Below, piece after piece: positions 34,583 through 58,596 of a stretch of DNA of 64,000 nt (position 1 is its first letter; every line of letters begins with the position of its first letter). This DNA comes from a virus. The translations under genes and the position numbers were made by a program. A model generated the notes under the pieces. That model saw only the letters and a list, made by a program, of their open reading frames with translations, was not told the DNA's origin and ran no database searches. Location of the stretch: positions 76,490-140,489 of the IMG/VR virus record IMGVR_UViG_3300036715_001290; one strand, 5' to 3'.

Positions 34583-34653
34583 CTTCCATTAGCTTAGTGG
34601 TAAAGCAGCCGTCTCTAAAACGGTGATCGTTTGTTCAATTCAAACATGGAGGA
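34583..34653 (+). tRNA. Amber suppressor tRNA (CTA)
   Basis: Acceptor CTTCCAT/ATGGAGG, anticodon arm GCCGT-CTCTAAA-ACGGT and T-arm GTTTG-TTCAATT-CAAAC. Confidence 0.85.
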
Positions 34654-34665
34654 CAACAAAATAGA

Positions 34666-36237: not shown

Positions 36238-36323
36238 GCCAGTACCGCAGAGATGGTGAATTGCGGCGGACTGTAAATCCGTTCATCCAAAAGATGTTGT
36301 AGGTTCGAATCCTTCTGCTGGCA
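36238..36323 (+). tRNA. tRNA-Tyr(GTA)
   Basis: GCGGA-CTGTAAA-TCCGT with a long variable arm. Confidence 0.88.
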
Positions 36324-36337
36324 CAAACATATTTAAT

Positions 36338-36406
36338 GGCACCGACTCAGGGCAAGAGGACTGTCTGTAAAACAGGAACTTGAAGGTTCGAATCCTTCCG
36401 GTGCCA
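36338..36406 (+). tRNA. tRNA(GTA), compact form without a long variable arm
   Basis: CTGT-CTGTAAA-ACAG with a canonical T-arm. Confidence 0.7.
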
Positions 36407-38818: not shown

Positions 38819-38894
38819 GCCCATATAACCCCCTTCCCTGATATGGAAGATAAAGGTAATGTTGAAAATAAAGGTTCAAGTCCTTTTATGGGTA
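38819..38894 (+). tRNA. Non-canonical tRNA(GAT) lacking a normal D-arm
   Basis: CTTCC-CTGATAT-GGAAG directly after a short linker, with a long region before the T-arm. Confidence 0.6.
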
Positions 38895-39782: not shown

Positions 39783-39900
39783 TATTAAAAACTGATAGTA
39801 TGGCGGAATAGTAGACGCACTGATAGTATACTATAATAATAAGTAGAACTCGGTTTATTTTTATATAGGTTCATATCCTATTACTATTAAGATTAATGAT

Positions 39901-39980: not shown

Positions 39981-40880
39981 CAAATGTTTATATGTTGTAT
40001 CGGTAGCAAACGGGCCGTAACTGGAGCCGGAGATCATGGTTCAATTCCTGATATAAACACTAAGTCCTTATGAACTTCGTAGGCTAAATGTCGATAGTTG
40101 AAATCAGCCTTAAGTTGGAGTTAACAACCAACATGAGCATGTTCAAGTGCATGCTTCCTGAATATAGACAGGACAAATAAATGTCGACTAAGGACTTAAT
40201 TTTAATATGTGGGTATGGTGTAATGGGTAAACATACTGGGCGTTAGCCCGTGAGACGTAGGTTCGAGTCCTGCTATCCTCTGCTTTTTATAAATAACGAG
40301 GCGACAGTACGCGCCTACAATACTAGAAATAGTAAGAGATAAAAAGGTACAAAACATATTTTTTATTTTAATTTAATTATATAGCATAAATGGTAAATGC
40401 ACACAGTCTTAGCATTGTGTAGAGTGGTTCGAGTCCACTATTGTTAGGGATGGCCTGTGTAGGTTCGAGTCCTACTATAATTAAATTATGATATGACTAC
40501 AACAACTGATGGGTAATACTAATATTAATTGGATCATTTTTGCGAATTAATATAATATGTATTTCAATTCAAGAGTAAGCAAATGTGAGGGTTGATGTTG
40601 TAGTTGCTTTTTATGAATGATGATGAGTAACGGAAGAGGGTAGACTCCAATTACATCAATTTAAGTAGATACGCCGATAAACGCTCGTGAGTACGTTACG
40701 CAAGTCGAGCAAAGCCTTAGTCGCACGGATGTAAACCAGCGGTGTTGAAATATACATCTGCATCATTCATAAATAATTAAAATACGCGGGTCGTCTAAAT
40801 TGGCAGTAGGACATTGAACGTTTAGTTCAAAGATCTAAGTTGGATCCTTAGTCTGACGTACATTTTAATTATTAACTAAA

Positions 40881-51782: not shown

Positions 51783-51855
51783 GCCCTTATAGTTCAATGG
51801 ATAAGAATACATCCCTGCGAAGGATGTGATTACAGTTCGAATCTGTATTTGGGTA
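51783..51855 (+). tRNA. tRNA-Arg(GCG)
   Basis: CATCC-CTGCGAA-GGATG. Confidence 0.8.
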
Positions 51856-51861
51856 CAAAAT

Positions 51862-51948
51862 GCTGATATGGTTGTAATGGTAAACACGACGTACTCAAAA
51901 TGCGTTGGATGAATGTCCGTGAGAGTTCGAGTCTCTCTATCAGTACCA
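51862..51948 (+). tRNA. tRNA-Leu(CAA)
   Basis: ACGTA-CTCAAAA-TGCGT; ends in ACCA. Confidence 0.88.
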
Positions 51949-51953
51949 AACAT

Positions 51954-52033
51954 GCTCACATAGTCGAGATCGTCTTCGAAACGATTAATCGTAATTGGAA
52001 CTGAAATTGTATGTTCGAGTCATACTGTGAGTA
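51954..52033 (+). tRNA. Non-canonical tRNA(TCG), Arg, with a displaced D-loop
   Basis: ATCGT-CTTCGAA-ACGAT; see findings. Confidence 0.65.
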
Positions 52034-52038
52034 CAAAT

Positions 52039-52118
52039 GCCGTGGTAGTCGAAGCTGTCTTCTAAACAGCTAATCGTAATAGGAACTGAAAATAAGGGTT
52101 CGATTCCCTTCCACGGTT
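52039..52118 (+). tRNA. Non-canonical tRNA(TCT), Arg, with a displaced D-loop
   Basis: GCTGT-CTTCTAA-ACAGC; see findings. Confidence 0.65.
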
Positions 52119-52129
52119 CTAATATTTTT

Positions 52130-52153
52130 TAAGCTGACAATGTCAGCTTTCTT
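52130..52153 (+). terminator. Terminator-like hairpin ending the tRNA block
   Basis: AAGCTGACA-A-TGTCAGCTT followed by TCTT. Confidence 0.55.
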
Positions 52154-52172: not shown

Positions 52173-53195
52173 ATGTCAACATTATTATCAAGAGATGAAT
52201 TTAGAAAATCCGTTTTAGAACGTGATAATTATAAGTGCGTCATATGTGGAGAAAGTAATAATCCAGTTGCTCATCATATTTTAGAACGTAGGTTATTTAA
52301 TGACGGTGGATATTATTTAGATAATGGTGCAACTGTTTGTAACAATTGTCATTTCTTAGCAGAGTCAACAACAATTTCAGTTGAAACTCTTAGAGAAAAA
52401 ATAAAAGCAAATGAAAATATTTTACCTGAACATTTTTATTCCGATTTAGTTTATGATAAGTGGGGTAATATTATATTACCAAATGGAACTAGATTAAAGG
52501 GTGAGTTATTTTTTGATGAAAGTGTACAAAAGATAATTAAAATATATCTTAATATGTTTGTTAAGTATGTTAAATATCCTAGAACATATCATACACCTTG
52601 GTCATTAGGAATGCACGATGATGATAGAATGATTGATAGTATGGATAACTTTATAGGTAAGGATGTTGTAGTATCTATTAAAATGGATGGTGAAAATACT
52701 ACAATGTATAATGATAATATTCATGCTAGGTCAATTGATTCAAATAATCATGAATCTAGAAATTGGGTAAAGAATTTTTGGAATACTATATCATATGAAA
52801 TTCCTGATAATTGGAGAATATGTGGTGAAAATCTATTTGCTAAACATTCTACTGTTTATAATGATTTACCATCATATTTTTTAGGATTTTCTATTTGGAA
52901 TGAAAAAAATATATGTTTATCTTGGGATGATACTATTACTTATTTTGATTTATTAAATATAAAATCAGTACCGGTATTATATAAAGGAATTTATGATGAA
53001 GATTTAATTAAATCTTTATGGGATAAATCTAAATATGATACAACTGAAGGATATGTAATTAGATTATCTGATTCTTTTTCTTATGGTGATTTTAGAAAAA
53101 GTGTAGCTAAATTTGTTAGACCTAATCACGTACAAACTGCTAAGCATTGGTTTGAAGGTCAACGTATGGAATGTAATAAATTAAAACTAAGTTGA
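52173..53195 (+). CDS. HNH endonuclease-like domain fused to an ATP-dependent RNA ligase (Rnl2-type family)
   Basis: N-terminal RDNYKCVICG...AHHI...NG..VC..CH; C-terminal KYPRT.H.PWS, KMDGEN, GEN, EGYVIR and KFVR. Confidence 0.85.
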   Translation: MSTLLSRDEFRKSVLERDNYKCVICGESNNPVAHHILERRLFNDGGYYLDNGATVCNNCHFLAESTTISVETLREKIKANENILPEHFYSDLVYDKWGNIILPNGTRLKGELFFDESVQKIIKIYLNMFVKYVKYPRTYHTPWSLGMHDDDRMIDSMDNFIGKDVVVSIKMDGENTTMYNDNIHARSIDSNNHESRNWVKNFWNTISYEIPDNWRICGENLFAKHSTVYNDLPSYFLGFSIWNEKNICLSWDDTITYFDLLNIKSVPVLYKGIYDEDLIKSLWDKSKYDTTEGYVIRLSDSFSYGDFRKSVAKFVRPNHVQTAKHWFEGQRMECNKLKLS

Positions 53196-55230: not shown

Positions 55231-55587
55231 GGGGATGAACTAGATTCGACTGTGATAGATTGTTATATGAGTGCAAGTAGATGTTATAAGTAAGCATTTT
55301 TAAAAAATACCTAAAACAATAAGTGCAGAAAACACTTACCTTTTAGCTGCTTAATCGTAGCTAAACATTTATTCTCCCATTGTCGAGTAATAGAATAAAT
55401 GATGCAAATCGACTAAATTATGTTGACAGTAATAAGATACTAATTATCTCAGAACTGTATGAAGAATTGATATGTAATTTCATAAAGAAACATTCCGTTT
55501 TGTTTAGTTATCGTAAAACTTTACTAAACTTGTGAAAGACTTATATTTAGTAGATTGCAACACTGGGGGCAGTACCCCACATCTCCA
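55231..55587 (+). ncRNA. ssrA: tmRNA, tag (A)AENTYLLAA*
   Basis: 5' GGGGATG...GATTCGAC and 3' GGGGGCAGTACCCCACATCTCCA with G3:U70; resume codon after ATAAGT: GCA GAA AAC ACT TAC CTT TTA GCT GCT TAA. Confidence 0.92.
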
Positions 55588-55686
55588 CTAAAATACTTTA
55601 GATAAATTACATATTTTATTTATTTCTAAATAATTATAATTAGATACAAACTCTAATACATACACTTAAATCTACGGAGTAAGCCT

Positions 55687-55988: not shown

Positions 55989-56921
55989 ATGAAAACAGTT
56001 AAAGTAAAAATACTTAGAGGCATCCCCGCCTCAGGAAAATCTACATATTCTAAAGAATTATGTAAAAATGGGTGGGTACGAATTAATAGAGATTCACTCA
56101 GAAAAATGTACAGTGCCGATTTAATCGTAGATTTTAACAAATCTAAGGAAAATCTCATTAAAGAATTGAGATGGAATTGCTTAGAATTGTTTGTTTCTAA
56201 TGGCAAAAATACAGTAATTGATGATACAAACATTGATACTTCTGTAATTGGTGAGACATTAAAAAAATGTCATCAAATTGCGGTTAAGTATAAAATTAAT
56301 GTTGATGTTTCAATTGAAACACTTGATATTGAACTTGATGAAGCTTTAAGACGTAATTCATTGCGTGAAGGGGAAGCAAATGTTCCAAAGATAGCAATAG
56401 AATATTTCTATAATAAAATGGCTACATCAAAACACATATATCCTGATAGAGAATCTACTTTACTTACTCCATTTGAAAAAGCAATTAACAATTATTCAGG
56501 TTTGCGTAAAGCATTTATTTTTGACATTGATGGTACATTAGCATTAATGAATAATCGCTCCCCATATGATTTTAAGAAAGTTGATACGGATCTTCCTAAT
56601 GGTTCAGTACCTATGATAGCTAGGATGTTAAAAGATAATCATGATTATTTTTATGATATCATAATTCTTAGTGGTCGTGATGATTCTTGTGAAGATCTTA
56701 CAAGAAAATGGTTAACTGATAATAATATTCGTTATGATCATTTATTTATGCGTAAAACCGAAGATAATAGACCTGATGATATTGTTAAACATGAAATTTA
56801 TAAAAATAAAATTGAAGGTAACTATACAATATTGGGTGTCTTTGATGATAGAAATCAAGTTGTAAATATGTGGAGACAAATTGGTTTACAATGTTTCCAA
56901 GTTGCGGATGGAAATTTCTAA
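55989..56921 (+). CDS. pseT: Polynucleotide 5'-kinase/3'-phosphatase (T4 PseT-like)
   Basis: GIPASGKST, NRD and DDTN; HAD motifs DIDGT, SGR and FDDR. Confidence 0.93.
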   Translation: MKTVKVKILRGIPASGKSTYSKELCKNGWVRINRDSLRKMYSADLIVDFNKSKENLIKELRWNCLELFVSNGKNTVIDDTNIDTSVIGETLKKCHQIAVKYKINVDVSIETLDIELDEALRRNSLREGEANVPKIAIEYFYNKMATSKHIYPDRESTLLTPFEKAINNYSGLRKAFIFDIDGTLALMNNRSPYDFKKVDTDLPNGSVPMIARMLKDNHDYFYDIIILSGRDDSCEDLTRKWLTDNNIRYDHLFMRKTEDNRPDDIVKHEIYKNKIEGNYTILGVFDDRNQVVNMWRQIGLQCFQVADGNF

Positions 56922-56922
56922 A

Positions 56923-57560
56923 ATGAATATCAAAGAAAATATTAAAGATTTTGTTTCACAGGAAGATTGGTTATTTACAACTTTTGTGGCATTATGTATT
57001 TTATTTGCTTTAATAGCATCTGGTTTTATTTTGATTGTTTTCATAATGTTATTTTTTGATTGGTTTCAGAAATATATAACTAAAAAGGTTACTACTTGAG
57101 ATCCGTTGAATTAAAAAAACGTGGAGTTGATGGTTGTTATTTTATATATGAAGGATCAACTGAAGTTATGAATACTGATGGTTTACGTAACTTGAGAGCC
57201 TTCATAGATAAATGTATTCGTTATGATGATTTTTGGAATGAACGTATAAAATATTATGAATCAAGTTATTTTGATTTATCATCAGATACTAATTTATATT
57301 ATATTGAAAATTATTCGCAACTTTATAATAACGAAGTTTCTAATGAAGCCGTATATGATTTATTATTAACTGATATCATTAATGCTAAAATAGCAGACCA
57401 AGTCACAATAGAATTAGAACCTGATAAAAAACATATTTTTATTAAATGTCATACATTAAAAGCAGCAATATTATTTTATAATTTTAATTATAAACATTAT
57501 ATAGCACCACAATTAAAAAAAATAAAAGAGAATAATAATGAATTTAGAAGTTTTAGATAG
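56923..57560 (+). CDS. Two hypothetical ORFs (56923-57099 membrane; 57096-57560)
   Basis: Coupled ORFs between PNKP and the RNA ligase. Confidence 0.5.
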
Positions 57561-58596
57561 TTACGTAGAAAAAGGATTAATAAATAAAGTTAGACATTAT
57601 GAATTGCCACTTTATTTATATAACTATTCTCGTGAATGTCAATTCGATAAAAAATGGGATATGTTTACTAAAATGTGTAGAGGATTAGTACTCGACTTTG
57701 ATGGTAATATAGTTTCTCGTCCATTTGATAAGATCTTTAATTTTGAAGAGTTGGATGGTACTTTTTCTAGAATACCTAATGAGGATTATGAAGTTTATGA
57801 TAAATATGATGGTTCATTATTAATAGTATCAATTTATAATGATAACTTATTAGTTCACACTCGTGGCTCTTTTGCAAGTGACCAGAGCATCATTGGTTTG
57901 GATATGATAAACAATAATAAGAACCTTAAAAATTATATCTTAGCAAATCCTAAATTAACATTTTTATTTGAAATTATATATCCTGAGAATAAAATTGTTT
58001 TGGATTATGGTGATTCAAAAATGTTAGTATTGTTGACAACTATAAATAAAATTACAGGTGAAGATAAAATTCCTTATGATTTTATTGGTTGTAATACTGT
58101 TAATCCATTACCTAAAATGTCCTTTAAGGAATTAAAGTCATTGAATTTAACTAACAAAGAAGGTTTTGTTATAAAGTTTACTCCTTCAAATTTTAGAATG
58201 AAAATTAAATTTGAAAATTATATTGAGTTACATAGATTACGTTCAAACTTTTCAATGAAAACCATGTTCGATGTTTTATATACTCAAGGTTGGGATGCTT
58301 TATGGAAATCATGTACAGAGTTACCTGATGAGTTTTATAAACAAGCTCAAACCTATGCAAATTTATTTGGTGCTTTATATGATGAAATTTCAATAACATC
58401 TGAAAATGATTTTAATGAAATTATGAATTTAGTAAATGGAAATGAAGTTTTTAATAGGGCTTCATTTGCAATGCTTGCTAAAAATAAAAGATATCCATCA
58501 GTTTTATTTGCAATGTTAGATAAAAGAGATATAAATCAATATGTCTTAGGTATAATTAAACTAATGATTAAAGATTTGGAATATAAAAAACAATGA
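57538..58596 (+). CDS. rnlA: RNA ligase 1 (T4 RnlA-like)
   Basis: CRGLV, RPFDK.FN, KYDGSL, TRGSF, FEIIYP.N.IV, EGFV and KIK..Y..LH. Confidence 0.9.
   Translation: MNLEVLDSYVEKGLINKVRHYELPLYLYNYSRECQFDKKWDMFTKMCRGLVLDFDGNIVSRPFDKIFNFEELDGTFSRIPNEDYEVYDKYDGSLLIVSIYNDNLLVHTRGSFASDQSIIGLDMINNNKNLKNYILANPKLTFLFEIIYPENKIVLDYGDSKMLVLLTTINKITGEDKIPYDFIGCNTVNPLPKMSFKELKSLNLTNKEGFVIKFTPSNFRMKIKFENYIELHRLRSNFSMKTMFDVLYTQGWDALWKSCTELPDEFYKQAQTYANLFGALYDEISITSENDFNEIMNLVNGNEVFNRASFAMLAKNKRYPSVLFAMLDKRDINQYVLGIIKLMIKDLEYKKQ

Follow-up and report, generated by a model that had tools for sequence, protein, structure and literature searches.

Two adjacent genes near one end of an array of tRNA genes very probably encode working arginine tRNAs whose core, as judged by sequence comparison, is a non-circular permutation of the cloverleaf. 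They lie in the window (the whole stretch of DNA analysed, 64,000 nt), which is the terminal 64 kb of a 140-kb IMG/VR virus record whose completeness is estimated at about 70%; the G+C content of the window is 28%. The parts of the two genes are as follows, H1 and H2 being the two predicted three-pair helices that involve the nucleotides at the site of the D arm.

51954..52033, + strand: rewired tRNA-Arg gene 1, anticodon TCG (51976-51978), 80 nt, CCA not encoded; read from the sequence, 33.5 bits with RF00005 and 88.8 bits with covariance model R1.
51962..51967, + strand: gene 1, 5' strand of H1 (51962-51964) and of H2 (51965-51967), family columns 9-14, assigned by pairing and covariation; one base follows, then the anticodon stem.
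51989..51991, + strand: gene 1, 3' strand of H2, partner of 51965-51967, columns 36-38.
51992..51999, + strand: gene 1, D-loop-like bulge of 8 nt, columns 39-46, every column invariant (U, A, A, G, G, A) except 42-43.
52000..52002, + strand: gene 1, 3' strand of H1, partner of 51962-51964, columns 47-49.
52003..52008, + strand: gene 1, 6-nt linker to the T stem, of the G-N-A-A-A-U type, conserved, columns 50 and 52-55 being invariant wherever the search pattern did not fix them.
52039..52118, + strand: rewired tRNA-Arg gene 2, anticodon TCT (52061-52063), 80 nt, CCA not encoded; read from the sequence, 35.7 bits with RF00005 and 94.1 bits with R1.
52047..52052, + strand: gene 2, 5' strand of H1 (52047-52049) and of H2 (52050-52052), columns as in gene 1.
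52074..52087, + strand: gene 2, 3' strand of H2 (52074-52076), D-loop-like bulge (52077-52084) and 3' strand of H1 (52085-52087).

In a common numbering from 1 to 80 the acceptor stem occupies 1-7 and 73-79, followed on its 5' side by U8, by 9-11 and 12-14 and by the single base 15; the anticodon stem (16-20/28-32) closes a 7-nt loop with the anticodon at 23-25, and after it come 33-35, 36-38, the 8-nt stretch 39-46, 47-49, the linker 50-55, the T arm 56-72 (a 5-bp stem with a UUCGA loop) and the discriminator at 80. The anticodon loops are C-U-UCG-A-A in gene 1 and C-U-UCU-A-A in gene 2, the bulges read UAAUUGGA and UAAUAGGA, respectively, and 23 nt separate the anticodon and T arms in both genes. 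An earlier sequence-only reading had described normal acceptor, anticodon (5 bp and 7 nt) and T arms, with only A-G-U-C-G-A-(G/A) after U8 where the D arm should be, and the letters bear it out on both points; the two copies have different letters in all three of these stems yet keep them paired, and AGU (9-11) can pair with ACU (47-49) and CGA (12-14) with UCG (36-38) around an 8-nt bulge in each, again as had been proposed. Compared with a cloverleaf, a D stem-loop between position 9 and the anticodon stem is absent, only 7 nt lying there after U8, and the variable region is neither 4-5 nt long nor a self-paired arm, its 23 nt showing no internal coupling, but the acceptor, anticodon and T arms are ordinary, their stems being 94-99% paired across the family with compensatory changes in 16 of the 17 pairs. 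The RF00005 scores, which lie above the gathering threshold of 29 bits, were obtained with permissive filters and by a fit that deletes the D arm and inserts 20 nt in the variable region, 5 nt being aligned to 15 model positions. Both genes are absent from the ARAGORN and default-filter Rfam scans of the whole window.

The predicted pairing of H1 and H2 is established by covariation, and neither by the two window copies nor by energy. Alignment A1 comprises 78 members of exactly 80 nt, is ungapped, and was selected on the three ordinary stems only, so that it was not fitted to the helix under test. In A1 the six pairs of H1 and H2 are 93.4% paired, against 77.7% in shuffles (0 of 500 reached the observed value), and control alignments in which the partner was slid by 1-3 columns gave 22-35%. 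Two-sided changes in H1/H2 were found in 90 cells where 26 ± 4 are expected. Among the 78 members, pair 10:48 is GC in 46, AU in 30 and UA in two and is never unpaired, pair 11:47 is CG in 55, UA in 14, UG in four and AU in two, pair 13:37 is GC in 64, AU in eight, CG in five and GU in one, and pair 14:36 is paired in 50, with five pair types, and unpaired in 28. Compensatory changes are present at these four of the six pairs; the other two, 9:49 (A:U) and 12:38 (C:G), never vary in A1 and are therefore uninformative either way. When APC-corrected mutual information was calculated blind to structure over 128 distinct members, the 20 variable pairs of the model were the top 20 couplings, including 10:48, 11:47, 13:37 and 14:36, and there was no other strong signal. 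Homologues with covariation in the AGUCGA/UCG..ACU helix, on which the sequence-only reading had staked its proposal as a test, thus exist, with four of six pairs covarying. A hairpin like the variable arm of class II tRNAs was also considered and rejected, as there is no coupling inside columns 33-55 and the segments concerned couple with columns 10-14.

The energetics are close to neutral: the nearest-neighbour energy of H1 plus H2 is −0.3 kcal/mol for gene 1 and −0.2 kcal/mol for gene 2 (family median −0.8 kcal/mol), which is not unusual for a helix of 3-4 bp that leans on tertiary contacts but is a caveat all the same. The minimum free energy (MFE) is about 4-5 kcal/mol lower than the energy of the proposed fold, the MFE folds of both genes misfold the T arm, and single-sequence folding of gene 1 is not better than that of shuffles (z −0.88). 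RNAalifold returned only the three ordinary stems and predicted neither H1 nor H2.

An exact search with the shared 21-mer found two viral contigs, and by BLAST further copies turned up in a 634-kb uncultured phage and among T5-like Vibrio phages. A degenerate pattern matched at least 119 stretches of the viral collection, with about 110 true members among the matches listed, and a second, differently anchored pattern yielded 30 further viral loci; the structure-checked count stands at a minimum of 151 rewired genes in at least 138 viral loci. The anticodons among the 151 listed are TCT (99), ACG (24), TCG (21), CCT (3), GAT (2), GCG (1) and CCG (1), while the 128 members in the 80-nt frame all have arginine anticodons (TCT 89, ACG 22, TCG 10, CCT 5, GCG 1 and CCG 1). 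In 596 Gb of prokaryote genomes there were 96 pattern matches, about 26 of them with tRNA stems and most on MAG contigs. On these counts the distribution is phage-centred. Members in isolate genomes were seen on large contigs of Brucella haematophila (L142:6519-6598) and Ochrobactrum sp. (L198:7152-7231). The Brucella copy comes after catalase and histidine kinase genes, which are followed by a cI-like HTH gene and by small uncharacterized ORFs; a tRNA-Gln gene is about 1 kb away, and this 8-kb context, in which chromosomal genes give way to the cI-like HTH gene and tRNA-Gln, suggests that it lies at a prophage edge. The 634-kb phage (LR745206; L003:1507-1665) has two tRNA-Arg(TCT) genes in direct succession, the first rewired and the second canonical, so the two designs can coexist for one anticodon.

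Standard annotation passes over most of these genes. ARAGORN misses 133 of the 151 listed (88%), overlaps 18 and labels five correctly. Cultured carriers with R1 scores of 82-97 bits are Pseudomonas phage vB_PaeM_Ty, Vibrio phages PG07 and D260 and Maribacter phage Panino, and BLAST adds PA11, TC6, PSA11, IME180, HHBS10_2, FBPa8 and PP21 (PA11-group relatives) at 90-99% identity over the full 80 nt. The GenBank records of cultured carriers either lack an annotation for the locus or place a 'hypothetical' or HNH CDS over it; in PA11 (NC_007808; L270:1075-1580) and TC6 (L271), for instance, an unannotated rewired tRNA-Arg(UCU) is found at the 3' end of an HNH gene. ARAGORN misfolds the rewired gene of Vibrio phage PG07 (L229:2494-2576) and calls it Arg CCG, the anticodon in the family frame being ACG. 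We did not find the layout described in the full-text literature, within which the coverage of subscription journals is thin.

The breadth of the family bears on whether these are intact genes and intact RNAs at all. That ARAGORN rejects them, and that RNA ligases are encoded nearby, might suggest decaying pseudogenes, or else ordinary tRNAs that are restored to cloverleaf order by cutting and rejoining of the RNA, but either would be extremely improbable. Decay is refuted by the covariation, and a constant length of 80 nt, an invariant core and compensatory changes are found across at least 151 genes from unrelated contigs. Rejoining would require two cuts and two joins inside the molecule, the carriers include phages down to 50 kb with no annotated ligase, and in the permuted tRNA genes known so far it is the entire 5' and 3' halves that change places, unlike in the genes described here.

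The unpaired core points to a D-loop-like role for the bulge. The first search pattern forced several letters, whereas the second left columns 38, 39, 46, 49, 50, 54 and 55 free, and these free columns are invariant in 46 TCT members, as are U8, A9 and C12; A40, A41, G44, G45, A52 and A53 are invariant in the same 46, these being letters fixed by the pattern itself. The bulge consensus is U-A-A-N-U-G-G-A, and the canonical tRNA-Arg(GCG) of the window has A-A-U-G-G-A in its D-loop and a U preceding its T stem. The invariance of U8, A40, A41, G44, G45 and U55 makes a letter-for-letter match to the canonical U8-A14, A15-U48 and G18/G19-T-loop partners, such that letters that might take the roles of U8, A14, R15, G18, G19 and Y48 are all invariant. 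A20 and C35 are the main determinants for bacterial ArgRS, within a tRNA-Arg identity set of A20, C35, U/G36 and A/G73 (PMC9976931). Of 116 Arg members, 107 have A directly after GG, as expected for the determinant A20, and U stands there in 13 of 15 non-Arg members; C35 is invariant, and T or G occupies position 36. A, U and G are about equally frequent as discriminator across the family; the U of gene 2 lies outside the cited A/G73. There is thus good circumstantial evidence that the bulge would serve as a working D-loop, and the description of it as D-loop-like with a conserved GG, made from the two copies, has held up in that the core letters are conserved and the base after GG tracks amino-acid identity.

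In the secondary structure supported by covariation, the chain leaves the acceptor stem by way of U8, follows the 6-nt strand 9-14 to the anticodon stem, and returns through 36-38 (paired with 12-14 as H2), the 8-nt D-loop equivalent, 47-49 (paired with 9-11 as H1) and the linker to the T arm. As it runs 5' to 3' toward the anticodon, strand 9-14 would stand in for the canonical 3' D-stem strand (22-26), and 36-38 would continue up from the anticodon stem in the manner of the canonical 5' D-stem strand (11-13), with the D-loop coming next. H1 would lie at the canonical 21-to-22 passage and, via U8 and the linker, tie the D-stem/D-loop/anticodon module to the acceptor/T stack. By layer counting only, H1 (three), H2 (three), the 1 × 3 internal loop and the anticodon stem (five) would stack into an arm about 12 layers long, nearly the length of the canonical stack between the 15-48 layer and the anticodon loop. 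U8, A40, A41, U55 and G44-G45 could then re-create the U8-A14, A15-U48 and G18/G19-T-loop contacts and with them the L shape; one possibility is that H1 stacks on H2 and that A40 and A41 dock in a groove, another that the bulge permits a bend. A46 is the single nucleotide between G45 and the helix, and short-D-loop tRNAs have one nucleotide between G19 and A21.

The sequence-only reading had combined this rewired L-shaped topology with a possible need for a phage synthetase. Homologues and covariation support the rewired connectivity, but the synthetase has not been borne out, since no PF00750 ArgRS core domain occurs in the 140-kb record or in five carrier phage genomes, one of them from a 50-kb Pseudomonas phage with the rewired gene as its sole tRNA. 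This finding in six carrier records, together with the absence of a CCA-adding enzyme from the 140-kb record, suggests charging and maturation by host enzymes: host ArgRS would recognize A46 (the A20 equivalent) and C35, and host RNase P and the host CCA-adding enzyme would process the ends. Charging by the host is plausible because E. coli HisRS, EF-Tu and the ribosome accept a tRNA from which the D arm has been removed (PMC11551756). The UCG tRNA of gene 1 should read CGA and probably CGG, and the UCU tRNA of gene 2 should read AGA, which accounts for 211 of the 339 Arg codons (62%) in 28 long ORFs of the window. The two genes are the sole TCG and TCT decoders of the window, as had been claimed: relaxed ARAGORN finds canonical tRNA-Arg only as CCT (50811) and GCG (51783). 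In 123 of the 138 listed viral loci no canonical tRNA-Arg with the same anticodon lies within the fetched stretch, and Pseudomonas phage vB_PaeM_Ty, whose 50-kb genome is complete, gives no tRNA match other than the rewired gene.

The filling of missing TCT and TCG slots, and the occurrence of the gene as the only tRNA of a 50-kb phage, also count against tRNA-like decoys or regulators that deliver no arginine and might titrate a nuclease or synthetase or prime a reaction. In favour of such a role, the fold is unlike that of any tRNA known to function in bacterial cytosolic translation (PMC11551756), but we regard it as very improbable: the anticodons are limited to arginine, C35 is preserved together with the A20-like base, U33 and A37 are retained in the anticodon loop, the acceptor and T arms are fully canonical, and TCT is far commoner than ACG and TCG, which is the prediction of codon supplementation for phages.

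By ARAGORN and Rfam the window contains about 48 tRNA genes at 33-52 kb, plus a tmRNA. The features that surround genes 1 and 2 are the following.

51783..51948, + strand: canonical tRNA-Arg(GCG) (51783-51856) and tRNA-Leu(CAA) (from 51862), found by ARAGORN and Rfam, immediately upstream of gene 1.
52173..53195, + strand: RNA ligase domain (PF09414, 1.1e-28) with, fused to it, an N-terminus that is weakly HNH-like (PF01844 HNH, 9.5e-4, under its cut-off).
55231-55590: tmRNA, between the RNA-repair genes of the window.
55989-56921, + strand: Pnkp-type kinase-phosphatase (HAD_PNKP, 1e-50).
57538-58596, + strand: T4 Rnl1-type RNA ligase (5e-19).

The order is thus tRNA-Arg(GCG), tRNA-Leu(CAA), gene 1 and gene 2, and the two rewired genes end the tight run with spacers of 5 nt, equal to those of their canonical neighbours. 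A hairpin at about 52131-52149, after gene 2, was not called a terminator by the consensus scan.

Just downstream of the array is a T4-like tRNA repair set (Pnkp, the Rnl1-type ligase and the second RNA ligase domain). Such control of tRNA damage near the genes, along with the tmRNA, would fit an adaptation at the RNA level, in which a tRNA that has no normal D hairpin, but preserves its contacts with ArgRS, EF-Tu and the ribosome, would be spared by a nuclease or modifying enzyme directed at tRNAs and belonging either to host defence or to the phage's own shut-off of host tRNAs. Evasion of host tRNA-targeting nucleases had been raised in the sequence-only reading. It would be a reason for the design and does not conflict with the genes being working tRNAs. 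Phage tRNA variants in the anticodon loop that evade tRNA-targeting defences are reportedly documented, and the design is phage-centred (about 110 true members among at least 119 viral stretches against about 26 of 96 prokaryote matches in 596 Gb), both of which speak for escape. We nevertheless consider it unlikely, as we know of no nuclease that reads the D arm of tRNA-Arg, the family has ordinary anticodon loops (C-U-NNN-A-A), and the repair genes belong to this phage in general and are not tied to genes 1 and 2, small phages without them carrying the tRNA too.

Selection could instead have acted on the DNA, the rearranged D-arm region removing the conserved tRNA-gene target at which free-standing homing endonucleases of phage tRNA clusters cut, so that endonuclease and immune tRNA gene spread jointly and displace ordinary tRNA-Arg genes. 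In the PA11 group the rewired gene begins within the last 27 nt of a gene annotated as 'HNH endonuclease, similar to T5 TflI' or 'homing endonuclease', the array with the rewired gene in Vibrio phage D260 includes an HNH endonuclease, and the next ORF in the window has the weak HNH-like N-terminus listed above. That ORF is atypical, because its match is under the Pfam cut-off and it is fused to an RNA ligase, and does not look like a typical homing enzyme; HNH genes are in any case common in phage tRNA clusters generally, and immunity of the DNA would leave the strict conservation of the unpaired core bases unexplained. We therefore think an origin of this kind quite improbable.

A third rewired gene was found further upstream in the array.

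38819..38894, + strand: rewired tRNA, anticodon GAT (Ile), 76 nt, 49.5 bits with R1, by which it was aligned.

It sits between canonical tRNA-Ile(GAT) and tRNA-Ile(TAT) genes, and has an H1 of AAC/GUU, an H2 of CC/GG and a 4-nt bulge, UAAU, that lacks GG, so the D-loop/T-loop contact cannot hold throughout the wider group. It is missing from the ARAGORN (default and relaxed) and Rfam lists and was also unreported by the sequence-only reading. Its assignment to an Ile subtype rests on the R1 alignment and on the Ile-type rows of alignment A2; a search with the short Ile-type pattern gave one match, which R1 aligned at the acceptor and T arms only (31 bits). Lower-scoring relatives found with R1 have the anticodons GAT, TAT, CAT and CTT.

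The closest comparison for genes 1 and 2 is the canonical class I tRNA-Arg (RF00005), with which they share the 7-bp acceptor stem, the U8-A9-G10-Y11 start, the 5-bp/7-nt anticodon arm with U33 and A37, the 5-bp T stem with its GUUCGA loop, the D-loop letters A-A-Y-(U)-G-G-A, the U before the T stem, C35 and arginine anticodons, the canonical copy of the window lying in the same array at equal spacing. They differ from it in having no D hairpin between 9 and 26, in carrying the D-loop letters 3' of the anticodon arm, and in 23 nt between the anticodon and T arms that form no hairpin of their own. The animal mitochondrial D-armless tRNA-Ser(AGY) and the engineered E. coli 'mini HisT' likewise have no D hairpin and show pairing between connectors, and establish that synthetase, EF-Tu and ribosome can accept D-armless tRNAs (PMC9427863; PMC11551756). 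In D-armless tRNAs, however, the D-loop with its GG is lost, the T loops are degenerate and the molecules take a Y or boomerang shape (PMC9427863; PMC11551756), whereas in the rewired family GG and UUCGA are invariant and the connectors pair with covariation; moreover, the natural D-armless cases are confined to mitochondria with co-evolved partners, while the rewired tRNAs would act in an ordinary bacterial host.

Rearrangement of RNA parts has its own precedents. In circularly permuted and split tRNA genes (Cyanidioschyzon, Nanoarchaeum) the order of parts also departs from the cloverleaf, but there entire halves have traded places or been split apart, and a canonical tRNA is recovered by processing; in the rewired genes the ends are in normal order, the acceptor strands being at both gene ends and 98.7% paired in the family, and the rearrangement is internal. 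Non-circular permutations of the hairpin and hammerhead ribozymes provide a parallel in which the order of segments is changed and conserved nucleotides, presumably with their positions in 3D, are kept, although that study deals with self-cleaving ribozymes and, in the passages searched, mentions tRNA only as circularly permuted genes restored by processing (PMC10085705). Allo-tRNAs and other 8/4 or 9/3 tRNAs resemble the rewired genes in being unusual, in coming from phage clusters and metagenomes and in being missed by standard tools, but they keep the cloverleaf order and change stem lengths only, whereas the rewired family is 7/5 with changed connectivity (PMC5389517).

Taken at its widest, and this we offer tentatively as possible but doubtful, the family would be a natural and widespread non-cloverleaf tRNA used by unadapted bacterial ArgRS, EF-Tu and ribosome, the first non-circular permutation of a tRNA, fixed by phages so as to conceal the tRNA or its gene from enzymes that recognize the ordinary D arm; candidates for these enzymes would be tRNA-directed defence nucleases, the phage's shut-off of host tRNAs and homing endonucleases of tRNA genes. 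Ile-type relatives such as 38819-38894 would then show an extension to other amino acids. Were the rewired tRNAs charged and decoding, they would form a large natural exception and a ready-made test of how the tRNA core is read by ArgRS, EF-Tu, RNase P, modification enzymes and the ribosome, their scaffold could serve as an orthogonal tRNA chassis, and phage tRNA counts and analyses of codon supply would be biased, since ARAGORN misses 88% of the genes listed and GenBank records of cultured carriers leave them unannotated or under another CDS. Cultured carriers are at hand in the P. aeruginosa PA11-group phages, which have no other tRNA, and in Vibrio phage PG07.

Four other genes of the array are unusual in ways of their own. 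At 36338-36406 (+ strand), directly after an ordinary 87-nt tRNA-Tyr gene (36238-36324), is a 69-nt tRNA-Tyr(GTA)-like gene without the long variable arm, which scores 41 bits with RF00005 and is called by ARAGORN only at the relaxed threshold. A 109-nt RF00005 match at 40375-40483 (+ strand) has two T-arm-like hairpins within one acceptor stem, and ARAGORN makes two overlapping calls there, to which it assigns no identity. The 98-nt tRNA-like gene at 39793-39890 (+ strand), to which ARAGORN gives a 4-base 'anticodon' (ATAC), could have an insertion or an 8-nt loop. Finally, the tRNA gene at 34583-34654 (+ strand) has the anticodon CTA, which reads the amber stop, and TAG terminates only two of the 28 long ORFs tallied.
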